A DNA stretch of 64,000 nt from a phage, in the sequence record PX880103.1; one strand, written 5' to 3'. Numbering within the stretch: position 1 is the first letter of the stretch; every line of letters begins with the position of its first letter. A program made the position numbers and the translations under genes. This document shows, piece by piece, positions 3,771 to 4,792 of this stretch. The notes under the pieces are model-generated. The model searched no databases, was not told where the DNA came from, and saw only the letters and a program-made list of their open reading frames with translations.

Positions 3771-3785
3771 CTTTGTGCAATCTTT

Positions 3786-3817
3786 GGAAAATAAAAAAGG
3801 ACTCCCGAAGGAGTCCT
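3786..3817 (-). terminator. rho-independent terminator (hairpin ggactccttcgggagtcc + T-run on minus strand)
   Basis: Perfect GC-rich stem with TTCG loop followed by TTTTTTATTTT on the minus strand, just downstream of the 3822..3998 ORF. Confidence 0.55.
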
Positions 3818-3821
3818 CAAC

Positions 3822-3998
3822 TTATGCTTTCTGCTTACCAAAACGAGAAGCATCATCTCGAAGAACCGCACGTGCTCGGCGCATGATCTTCTCAACAGTT
3901 TGATTGATACGAGAGTTCGACCCACGCTTGTAACCAGCGCGTTTAGAATCACCAACTTTCTTTTCAACTGCTTTCTTTGCTTTAGCTTGTTTTGCCAT
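3822..3998 (-). CDS. small lysine/arginine-rich protein (58 aa from internal ATG)
   Basis: Track ORF 3822..4040; internal start MAKQAKAKK preferred; terminator immediately downstream. Confidence 0.45.
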   Translation of the reverse strand: MAKQAKAKKAVEKKVGDSKRAGYKRGSNSRINQTVEKIMRRARAVLRDDASRFGKQKA

Positions 3999-4396
3999 TA
4001 TAAATTCTCTTTTAAATGAAAATGCAGGACTTATTGGCATTGCCTGCGCAAGCCCTCAAGGGGAACATAGGTTTTTGGATATTTAACGACCAGGATAACC
4101 ATAAACCCGTCATCATACCTTATAGCTCTTATCTGTTGCACACCGTTAGCTTAAAGGTTCCGGGTTCGATTTCTCGAGGATAAGATATATACTGATGGAT
4201 ATATAGGCCTTGAGGCGTACTCCCGATTGGCCATCACCTCGGGGTAGCATGCACTTGCCGCTATAAGAATAACATTCAAGAGGTACACCGTAAAACTGCC
4301 GGGGTCTTAAAACTATAATGATTCGCAAATCATTAATCAGACAGTTCGACGGCTCCTCGTTTTAACTTCACACTAAGGCAGTGACTCTCCAATAAA

Positions 4397-4645
4397 TTAC
4401 TTCAGTGTTACCACAAAGTGACGAACTGCTTTTCGTGCAGCAGAAGCCAGAGGCTTAGCATATTTAAGTTCATCTTTTTCCTGAAGCTCAGCAGCTAGTG
4501 CAGTTTGAGCAGGATTCAGATGTTTGAAATAACGCAGGATTTCAAGAGCTTCGGCTTCAACATCAATAGATGCGCCATAGTTTTCGTGACCATTATTCCA
4601 TGCGTTTCGTTGCAGTTCAAGAGCGTGTTGTAATTGTTTAATCAT
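4397..4645 (-). CDS. rIII: RIII lysis-inhibition accessory protein
   Basis: 82 aa, same length as T4 RIII; sequence MIKQLQHALELQRNAWNNGHENYG; position upstream of gene 31 as in T4. Confidence 0.85.
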   Translation of the reverse strand: MIKQLQHALELQRNAWNNGHENYGASIDVEAEALEILRYFKHLNPAQTALAAELQEKDELKYAKPLASAARKAVRHFVVTLK

Positions 4646-4792
4646 TTAAAAATTCTCATTAGAGATTAAAACTCAGTAGTCACGTTCTTCTGAATTTCAC
4701 TTCCTTTCGGCAAGTCTCTCAGTTGTAGACTACCACATAGAATTGTTCGGTTAACTTATTATTCCGACACCCAATTCATATTATTATTTATA

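Follow-up and report, generated by a model that had tools for sequence, protein, structure and literature searches.

Comparative analysis of a 64,000-nucleotide stretch of phage DNA (sequence record PX880103.1; here called the window, at its full length, with position 1 being its first letter) points to a structured RNA of ~150 nt, encoded on the minus strand in the gene-free spacer between the genes rIII and 30.9 of a T4-like phage; its existence, strand and fold we regard as close to certain. The domain spans 149 nt (4119-4267, minus strand; 5'-CUUAUAGCGGCAAGUGCAUGC...CAACAGAUAAGAGCUAUAAG-3'), as delineated by a covariance model, R1, together with the consensus structure, and the comparative evidence shows a predicted architecture of seven helices around a four-way junction, with a kissing-loop contact of 6-7 bp. 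R1 scores the window with 183 bits over positions 4120-4267, and the copy found there has all the features of the R1 family, namely the four-way junction, the 6-7 bp kissing between the loops L3 and L4, and the invariant sequence blocks GGCAAG-GCAUG, ACCYGGA-CC and GCUAACRGUG-GCAAC. The RNA family is undescribed. Taking all lines of evidence together, we consider the best explanation of this locus to be an undescribed family of ~150-nt RNAs of T4-like phages infecting enterobacteria that acts as a self-contained module, a judgment in which we are evenly divided between acceptance and doubt.

Evidence for the fold and its strand

The case for the fold is built on compensatory changes between phages. 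A MAFFT alignment of 17 distinct sequences, which was not fitted to a structure model, yielded with RNAalifold a multi-helix fold with 11 covarying pairs; the same helices were thus found independently, and the consensus fold approximates the minimum-energy fold of the minus strand. In these 17 sequences the structure, including the loop-loop contact, has 96.7% of its cells paired and 16 pairs with changes on both sides, as against 26-39% of cells and 3-5 double-change pairs in slid controls, with the partners displaced by 1-3 columns; in 500 shuffles these values were never equalled. In an alignment of 20 distinct sequences (A6), which spans two subfamilies, the revised structure has 97.9% of its pair cells paired and double changes in 31 of its 42 pairs (slid controls: 27-44% and 4-8 pairs). 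This degree of support from covariation is comparable to that of many riboswitch and ribozyme classes when they were first reported. The conserved secondary structure bears out a suggestion made in an earlier reading of this DNA from its letters and open reading frames (ORFs) only (the original prediction), which had singled out the segment 4041-4396 and offered a structured small RNA as one of its possible contents; the covariation is very strong, and the domain is the central 149 nt only, on the minus strand.

Certain points nevertheless weigh against our conclusion. The 20-sequence alignment was fitted to the model and is hence biased towards the structure, a bias of which the 17-sequence MAFFT test is free. 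The sequences come from few clades, so that the counts of paired cells overstate the number of independent events. Furthermore, the folding energy of the single sequence is ordinary and does not surpass what shuffled sequence gives (z = 0.04 on the plus strand and -0.88 on the minus strand), and the case for structure therefore comes from the comparison between phages and not from thermodynamics.

With respect to the strand, the internal helices contain 10 G.U pairs as opposed to 0 A.C pairs, and because G.U pairs occur there only, the minus strand is identified as the RNA strand; the GNRA loops described below agree with this. The several potential stems of the original prediction do exist, but the meaningful ones sit on the minus strand and not on the strand that was first read. 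An RNA on the plus strand, represented by a stem with G.U pairs, was considered and rejected: that stem is broken in Klebsiella phage MY02 and in the Serratia phages, and the covarying helices carry G.U pairs on the minus strand only. Two helices of the first model, a GGCA/UGCU hairpin and a GCC/GGC mini-hairpin, were likewise discarded, being broken by divergent members; an unbiased scan of all column pairs extends helix P3 instead.

Architecture of the RNA

Inspection of the consensus structure indicates that the domain is closed by the helix P1, in which the 5' strand CUUAUAGC (4260-4267; these and the positions that follow are on the minus strand) pairs with the 3' strand GCUAUAAG (4119-4126). 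P1 is variable in sequence, and 7 of its 7 modelled pairs covary between lineages (for example AGC/GCU, AAC/GUU, UAC/GUA and UAG/CUA). The helices P2, P4 and P5 abut P1 directly, such that the predicted four-way junction has zero unpaired linker bases. P2 consists of GGC (4257-4259) and GCC (4206-4208); this invariant helix, which can pair in 20 of 20 sequences and shows no covariation, is one that we infer. Between it and P3 lies an internal loop that is invariant (AAGNGCAU opposite CUNANG). One strand of this loop (AAGUGCAU, 4249-4256) is invariant save for one U/G position and is a candidate for the functional core of the RNA, while the opposite strand, CUCAAG (4209-4214), is conserved as CU-A-G. 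P3 itself is a 10-bp helix with two bulges, formed by GCUACCCCGA (4239-4248) and UCGGGAGUACGC (4215-4226, with A4221 and C4217 bulged); 9 of its 10 pairs covary and 100% of the cells are paired, its extension pairs being those that came from the unbiased column-pair scan.

The loop L3 that caps P3 (GGUGAUGGCCAA, 4227-4238) includes the sequence UGAUGG (4231-4236), predicted to kiss CCAUCA (4193-4198) in the loop of P4, a hairpin of the form UAUAUA-UCCAUCAG-UAUAUA (4186-4205) whose stem is 100% paired with covariation in 4 of 6 pairs. L3 and L4 can form 6-7 Watson-Crick pairs in all 20 members, as compared with an average of 3.6 for mismatched combinations of the loops, and six sequence pairs are found in the family: UGAUGG/CCAUCA, CGAUGG/CCAUCG, CUAUGG/CCAUAG, CAAUGA/UCAUUG, UGCAUU/AAUGCA and UUGUAUU/AAUACAA.

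The remaining arm is founded on P5 (UCUUAUC, 4179-4185, paired with GAUAAGA, 4127-4133; 5 of 7 pairs covary) and branches into the hairpins P6 and P7. P6 (UCGA-GAAA-UCGA, 4166-4177) has covariation in each of its 4 pairs, and seven G.U pairs fix the strand. Its loop is of the GNRA type (GAAA, GUAA or GGAA) in the members found at the rIII locus, with Serratia phage PS2 (UAAU) as the sole exception; in the subfamily found at the uvsY locus it is longer and not GNRA. In P7 (4140-4165), ACCCG pairs with CGG-U-GU around a 15-nt loop, GAACCUUUAAGCUAA; two of the five pairs covary, through a change from A-U to U-A in Erwinia phage Cronus and from C-G to U-A in Pseudotevenvirus members, and the remaining pairs are invariant. 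The junction strand GCAACA (4134-4139) falls within the most conserved block of the RNA, GCUAACGGUGUGCAACAG. In all, ~45 nt are invariant across the internal loop and the P5/P6/P7 junction.

Phyletic distribution and conservation

The window belongs to a T4-like (Tequatrovirus) genome: a BLAST search with a 1.1-kb query at the locus matched 970 phage records, with a top identity of 98.9%. The whole spacer was matched in 180 records. T4 and most Tequatroviruses lack a central block of the spacer of ~155 nt, and the RNA at 4119-4267 is exactly the segment missing from these T4-type relatives. On the other hand, T4-like phages of Klebsiella, Enterobacter, Citrobacter, Edwardsiella and Serratia match the central block alone, with 84-96% identity, and in 6 of 6 fetched records from those five host genera the block lies between rIII and 30.9. 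A search with nothing but the block matched 411 records, which carry it at the rIII locus, and in 396 the match covered 80% or more of its length. Its conservation far exceeds that of the neighbouring genes: in the Dhakavirus JS98 the RNA is 100% identical and the RIII protein 89%, and in the Klebsiella and Enterobacter phages the RNA is 91-96% identical and the RIII proteins 70-77%. With the core 84-100% identical across genera and RIII proteins at 57-89%, the comparison by BLASTN with relatives, which the original prediction had named as a check, does not show ordinary intergenic sequence.

There is one copy of the RNA per genome, that described here being the sole copy in the 64-kb window. 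No match to it was found in 5,426 E. coli genomes, and an 18-mer of the invariant block had no exact match in a set with one genome from each of 185,579 bacterial and archaeal species. A metagenome scan recovered 14 near-identical T4-like contigs, together with one chance match inside a gene, and the 20 loci found in IMG/VR by a degenerate two-block scan belong without exception to clades already sampled. Application of R1 to rIII-anchored IMG/VR loci uncovered divergent members in an IMG/VR contig (130 bits) and in Escherichia phage EcS1 (100 bits); the RNA of Erwinia phage Cronus scores 138 bits. A second subfamily, with R1 scores of 70-78 bits and ~20 records, is found in Yersinia phage JC221 and in Pseudotevenvirus-type phages (GAP161, Olmo and K41P2).

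Alleles and genomic locations of the RNA

Closely related phages present three alleles at a single site (...CUCUUGAAUGU / X / GUAUGAUGACG...), where X is empty, the RNA, or an unrelated insert of ~52 nt. The empty allele is seen in T4-type phages, including contigs with an RIII protein 100% identical to that of the window. The ~52-nt insert (AUUUUGUACUAUCACGUGUCAGAAAAAGGUUAUCUGUCUAAGCCGUGGUUG) occurs in the Mosigvirus-like contigs L031 and L036, at the place equivalent to window 4117-4270. Since phages with identical RIII carry the empty site, the RNA or the unrelated insert, the RNA by all sequence indications behaves as an autonomous module. Its position is also flexible within the spacer: it lies downstream of a second conserved spacer hairpin (described below) in the window phage, Citrobacter phage CF1 and Enterobacter phage PG7, and upstream of that hairpin in Klebsiella, Serratia and Edwardsiella phages, and the domain may begin just 5 nt past the rIII stop codon. 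In the second subfamily (Pseudotevenvirus and JC221-type phages) it is found at a different locus altogether, on the same strand as and following uvsY, uvsY.-2 and a small ORF. There it stands ~145 nt before a bidirectional terminator and faces the convergent gene uvsW.1, with no same-strand gene downstream.

Coding potential, composition and comparison with known RNAs

The absence of a credible ORF from the spacer, as first reported, holds: only short ORFs overlap it and none of them is conserved. In 20 homologous sequences every frame of both strands has 1-5 stops in 19 or all 20 members, and the longest spacer ORF, JB75_0063A (a hypothetical protein in the vB_EcoM_JB75 record), has no match to a PHROG family. 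The protein-coding labels placed over the RNA (JB75_0063A, CDS0050 of Klebsiella phage phi1_146043, JC221_170 and Olmo_16/17) were accordingly considered and rejected, there being no frame common to the 20 members and no PHROG match, and the small hypothetical-protein annotations over the RNA are probably spurious. Deposited genes of this kind overlie the RNA on either strand, for instance at positions 1947-2141 of sequence L001, 1521-1625 of L003, 1560-1736 of L082 and 1455-1728 of L085. The reported enrichment in G+C is likewise real, the content being 0.441 for 4041-4396 and 0.466 for the central 148 nt against a window mean of 0.357 (standard deviation 0.036 for 356-nt windows); just 1.3-1.6% of equal-sized windows are as high.

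The other identities raised for this segment fare less well. Of the tRNA-like fragments, the string GGTTCGATT is present at 4163-4171, but it is neither tRNA-like nor conserved: it is contained in the complement of P6 and is the antisense of that GNRA hairpin, it varies among relatives (GTCCGA, GTCTGA), and, lying on the strand opposite to the RNA, it does not conform to a conserved T-loop (GTTCRANY) closed by a 5-bp stem. ARAGORN found 0 tRNA or transfer-messenger RNA (tmRNA) genes in the whole window. A decayed gene is contradicted by the lack of any conserved frame and by a sequence better conserved than the flanking genes. An intron remnant is also disfavoured, as the RNA is located outside any gene, has no Rfam intron match and, at 149 nt, is judged too small for a group I intron, a class that measures ~200 nt or more and is built on a P3-P7 core containing a guanosine-binding site; moreover, the empty-site allele joins non-coding sequence.

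Searched against Rfam 15 (4227 models, among them those for riboswitches, ribozymes, introns, RNase P and phage motifs), the window and a Pseudotevenvirus homologue gave no match with E <= 10 within the RNA, whichever the strand, and the spacer has no match to a known family. The lone nearby match (11.8 bits) overlaps just the last 9 nt of the RNA, and the others are terminator-like chance matches outside the domain. A full-text literature search found no description of the RNA, though subscription journals are outside its coverage and an earlier report is possible. E. coli RNase P RNA (rnpB) shares with the RNA a 10-mer, GUGCAACAGA, which lies in the most conserved block, and an 8-mer, GAACCCGG; however, 9% of shuffles score equally, the strings are not collinear and there is no Rfam RNase P match, and we take the likeness as coincidence. 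Nothing was left on comparison of a supposed resemblance to tmRNA.

T4 itself encodes two RNAs that resemble the RNA of the window in size, in being non-coding and in lying on the gene strand, namely rnaC (species 1, 139 nt) and rnaD (species 2, 119 nt), which the T4 record calls just 'small, stable RNA', without a function. These are co-transcribed with their neighbours and are not known to be made from promoters of their own. They differ from the new RNA in showing no likeness of sequence or structure and in occupying another locus, T4 being without the new RNA, and no tRNA-like 3' end is evident in the latter; a scan of T4 69.0-74.0 kb (the tRNA/rnaC/rnaD region) with R1, filters off, gave at best 3.3 bits (E = 2). 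Among other phage RNAs, GOLLD, ROOL and the 'promoter-early stem-loop' cassettes of T4-type phages, mobile elements reported, like the new RNA, from differing places in the genome, are comparable as conserved non-coding modules with a patchy distribution. However, GOLLD and ROOL are several times the size and are represented in Rfam, where the new RNA has no match, and the stem-loop cassettes are short and tied to an early promoter, unlike the promoterless new RNA with its complex fold.

Possible functions of the RNA

We favour, with confidence that falls somewhat short of even, a role in trans as a probably processed accessory RNA and not one as a leader of 30.9, because one subfamily is without a downstream gene, which rules out the leader role there, because close relatives do without the RNA, and because no expression platform adjoins P1. 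The RNA would be transcribed within the rIII-30.9 message, which would run from upstream promoters, the late promoter at 4792 included, to the terminator at 3797-3818, and its uvsY-locus counterpart would be transcribed with uvsY. In the favoured scenario, the compact domain closed by P1 would persist after transcription, or be trimmed from its AU-rich flanks; a parallel is offered by the T4 tRNAs, rnaC and rnaD, which are described as cut from longer transcripts. The invariant internal loop and junction could bind a conserved partner, which might be a small ligand or a protein of the host or the phage, and the RNA might in this way serve a dispensable accessory function in infection as opposed to regulating an adjacent gene. 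More tentatively still, we propose that it could represent a new functional RNA class with its own biochemistry, such as a ligand or protein 'sponge' or a ribozyme, spread as a portable accessory module among T4-like phages of Escherichia, Klebsiella, Enterobacter, Serratia, Erwinia and Yersinia. Such a role, for example in neutralising a host defence or taking over a host RNA pathway, would explain why the RNA is ultra-conserved, why near-identical phages have gained or lost it, and why it has moved from one locus to another. The trans-acting proposal has its difficulties: both the discrete 150-nt species and the conserved binding partner are putative; the RNA lies upstream of 30.9 in the same transcript in every rIII-locus member examined, where it may act in cis; and the pattern of conservation, in which the closing helix varies, the peripheral contacts covary and the junction is invariant, would fit a riboswitch aptamer or a ribozyme equally well.

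The architecture indeed recalls that of the purine and lysine riboswitches, which possess multi-helix junctions and kissing loops, in combining a variable closing helix, invariant nucleotides in the junction or internal loop, and two neighbouring arms clamped by a loop-loop contact of ~6 bp. A riboswitch-like cis regulator would be a ligand-sensing aptamer in the 30.9 leader that controls translation or the fate of the mRNA, and a conserved, structured, aptamer-like domain with an invariant core is what we find, its distance to the downstream, same-strand 30.9 being 100-290 nt in all the rIII-locus members examined; by our direct reading, the 30.9 ribosome-binding site also appears buried in a hairpin in several genera. 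However, the RNA has no Rfam riboswitch match, neither a steady 5'-leader position nor an expression platform was found, and no terminator or pairing against P1 was seen adjoining P1. The sequence between domain and 30.9 differs by lineage, the start of the domain can be only 5 nt after the rIII stop, the second subfamily is without any downstream gene, and in T4 and many close relatives 30.9 is expressed although the domain is missing. We accordingly judge this explanation unlikely, marginally more so than a self-cleaving or otherwise catalytic RNA, in which an active site made up of the invariant internal loop and junction, with the kissing loops keeping it together, would process the rIII-30.9 or uvsY message. 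The latter, itself an unlikely candidate, could account for the compact four-way junction, the covarying tertiary contact and the ~45 invariant nucleotides in unpaired regions, and also for the patchy presence in unrelated gene contexts without a constant downstream gene, as is seen with small ribozymes. By architectural analogy, the hairpin ribozyme too has a perfectly paired four-way junction with adjacent arms side by side, but its adjacent arms dock via two internal loops, whereas the contact in the new RNA would be a Watson-Crick kissing of terminal loops. Against catalysis stand the lack of an Rfam match to the hairpin or any other ribozyme, the lack of a recognisable catalytic motif, a CUGAUGG string of the plus strand that is not conserved, and a length of ~150 nt, which exceeds that of most self-cleaving classes.

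A passive mRNA-stability element, the fold of which would block 3'-to-5' exonucleases or shield the rIII or uvsY message, is improbable in our assessment. Its position is apt, always downstream of a coding region on the same strand and at the 3' end of the operon in the second subfamily, and so is the compact closed fold; but a stable hairpin would suffice for this purpose, leaving the long invariant single-stranded blocks, the kissing contact and the 91-100% cross-genus identity unexplained, and the predicted stability is ordinary and a terminator hairpin already ends both transcription units. We give very little credence to the view that the segment acts not as RNA but as a DNA element (an origin, a protein-binding site or a recombination hotspot) or is a relic of a tRNA, gene or intron. 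The site is admittedly a hotspot of insertion and deletion, contains the literal GGTTCGATT, and in the record of one relative an 'ori type 2 repeat' is marked in the spacer ~100 bp off, beside the 30.9 start. The G.U asymmetry (10 versus 0), the GNRA loops and a loop-loop covariation that has no rationale in DNA argue against a DNA element, and the negative ARAGORN and Rfam searches, the lack of a conserved frame and the high conservation against a decaying relic.

Although T4 and its relatives are among the best-annotated viruses, several hundred deposited genomes either leave this complex RNA blank or annotate it wrongly as small hypothetical proteins, and T4-like phages of Klebsiella, Enterobacter and E. 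coli are in therapeutic use. Nature has supplied isogenic controls in the form of empty, RNA-bearing and otherwise filled sites with identical neighbouring genes, and these make the function directly testable. Should the RNA bind a ligand or host factor, or be catalytic, it would add an RNA-based tool to the conflict between phage and host; at a minimum, the gain is a corrected annotation and a covariance model ready for phage genome pipelines.

Genes and signals of the locus

On the minus strand the gene order is gene 31, rIII, 30.9 and 30.8. The gene upstream of the RNA in the same transcript is rIII (4397-4645, minus strand); downstream lies gene 30.9 (3822-3998, minus strand), coding for a basic protein of 58 amino acids (phrog_1427, function not assigned) that has no Pfam family. 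This is the small basic ORF of the original prediction, and comparison with homologues places its true start at the ATG at 3998 (MAKQ...) and not at 4040, as a result of which the gene-free spacer between rIII and 30.9 is 3999-4396, a little larger than the 4041-4396 first noted. The start of 30.9 is placed 14 codons too early in several public records, and some call the gene '1,4-alpha-glucan branching enzyme', an evident annotation error.

An exact T4 late-promoter motif, TATAAATA, is found upstream of rIII (4785-4792, minus strand), and an intrinsic terminator after 30.9 (3797-3818, minus strand) closes the rIII-RNA-30.9 transcription unit. Weak Rfam matches at 3783-3866 on the minus strand (Atu_C8, with E = 0.0004 and below the gathering score, and Phe_leader) correspond to this terminator hairpin, GGACUCCUUCGGGAGUCC, with its U-run. 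Scans for sigma-70 promoters, intrinsic terminators and late promoters revealed no promoter-like or terminator-like site on the gene strand of the spacer. In Yersinia phage JC221 only, a late-promoter-like sequence, CATAAATA, can be read just upstream of the RNA (sequence L082, ~1660-1640, minus strand), from which transcription would begin roughly where the closing helix does, a hint that the JC221 copy may have its own promoter.

Other elements of the spacer

Several additional elements share the spacer with the RNA. The second conserved hairpin module (window 4070-4100, minus strand; GGUUAUCCUGGUCGUUAAAUAUCCAAAAACC) is also present in T4, and its position relative to the RNA differs by genus, the module being upstream of the RNA in the sequence L003 and downstream of it in L005 and L006. 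Its stem varies by lineage (GGUU/AACC in the window, UUGUGAG/CUCACAA in Citrobacter phage CF1 and AAGGUU/AAUCUU in contig L039) around a loop of ~23 nt in which CGUUAAAUAU is kept; in Yersinia phage JC221 a stretch similar to this hairpin comes after the RNA. Nearly all the genera aligned, and T4 among them, also have in front of 30.9 a conserved small hairpin with CUUGCG next to it (window 4046-4063, minus strand; CCCCUUGAGGGCUUGCG; CUUGCG on the 3' side), and Cronobacter phage GAP161 has a similar one, CCCCUUGUGGGG, past the RNA at its uvsY locus (sequence L083, ~1703-1722).

In Klebsiella and Citrobacter phages (sequence L003, 1380-1490; L005, 1112-1200) the ribosome-binding site of 30.9, GGAAGA, is apparently paired with an upstream UCUCC, and the hairpin so formed is preceded in the same spacers by a long GGGAGC...GCUCCC stem, an arrangement that suggests translational control of 30.9 in these phages. 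Finally, the part of the spacer just past the rIII stop (window 4268-4396, minus strand) is common to T4-type and Mosigvirus-like relatives and not to the other genera aligned; it contains two rIII-proximal hairpins, AAUGAUU-UGCG-AAUCAUU at 4317-4334 and CACU..AGUG near 4371-4385.

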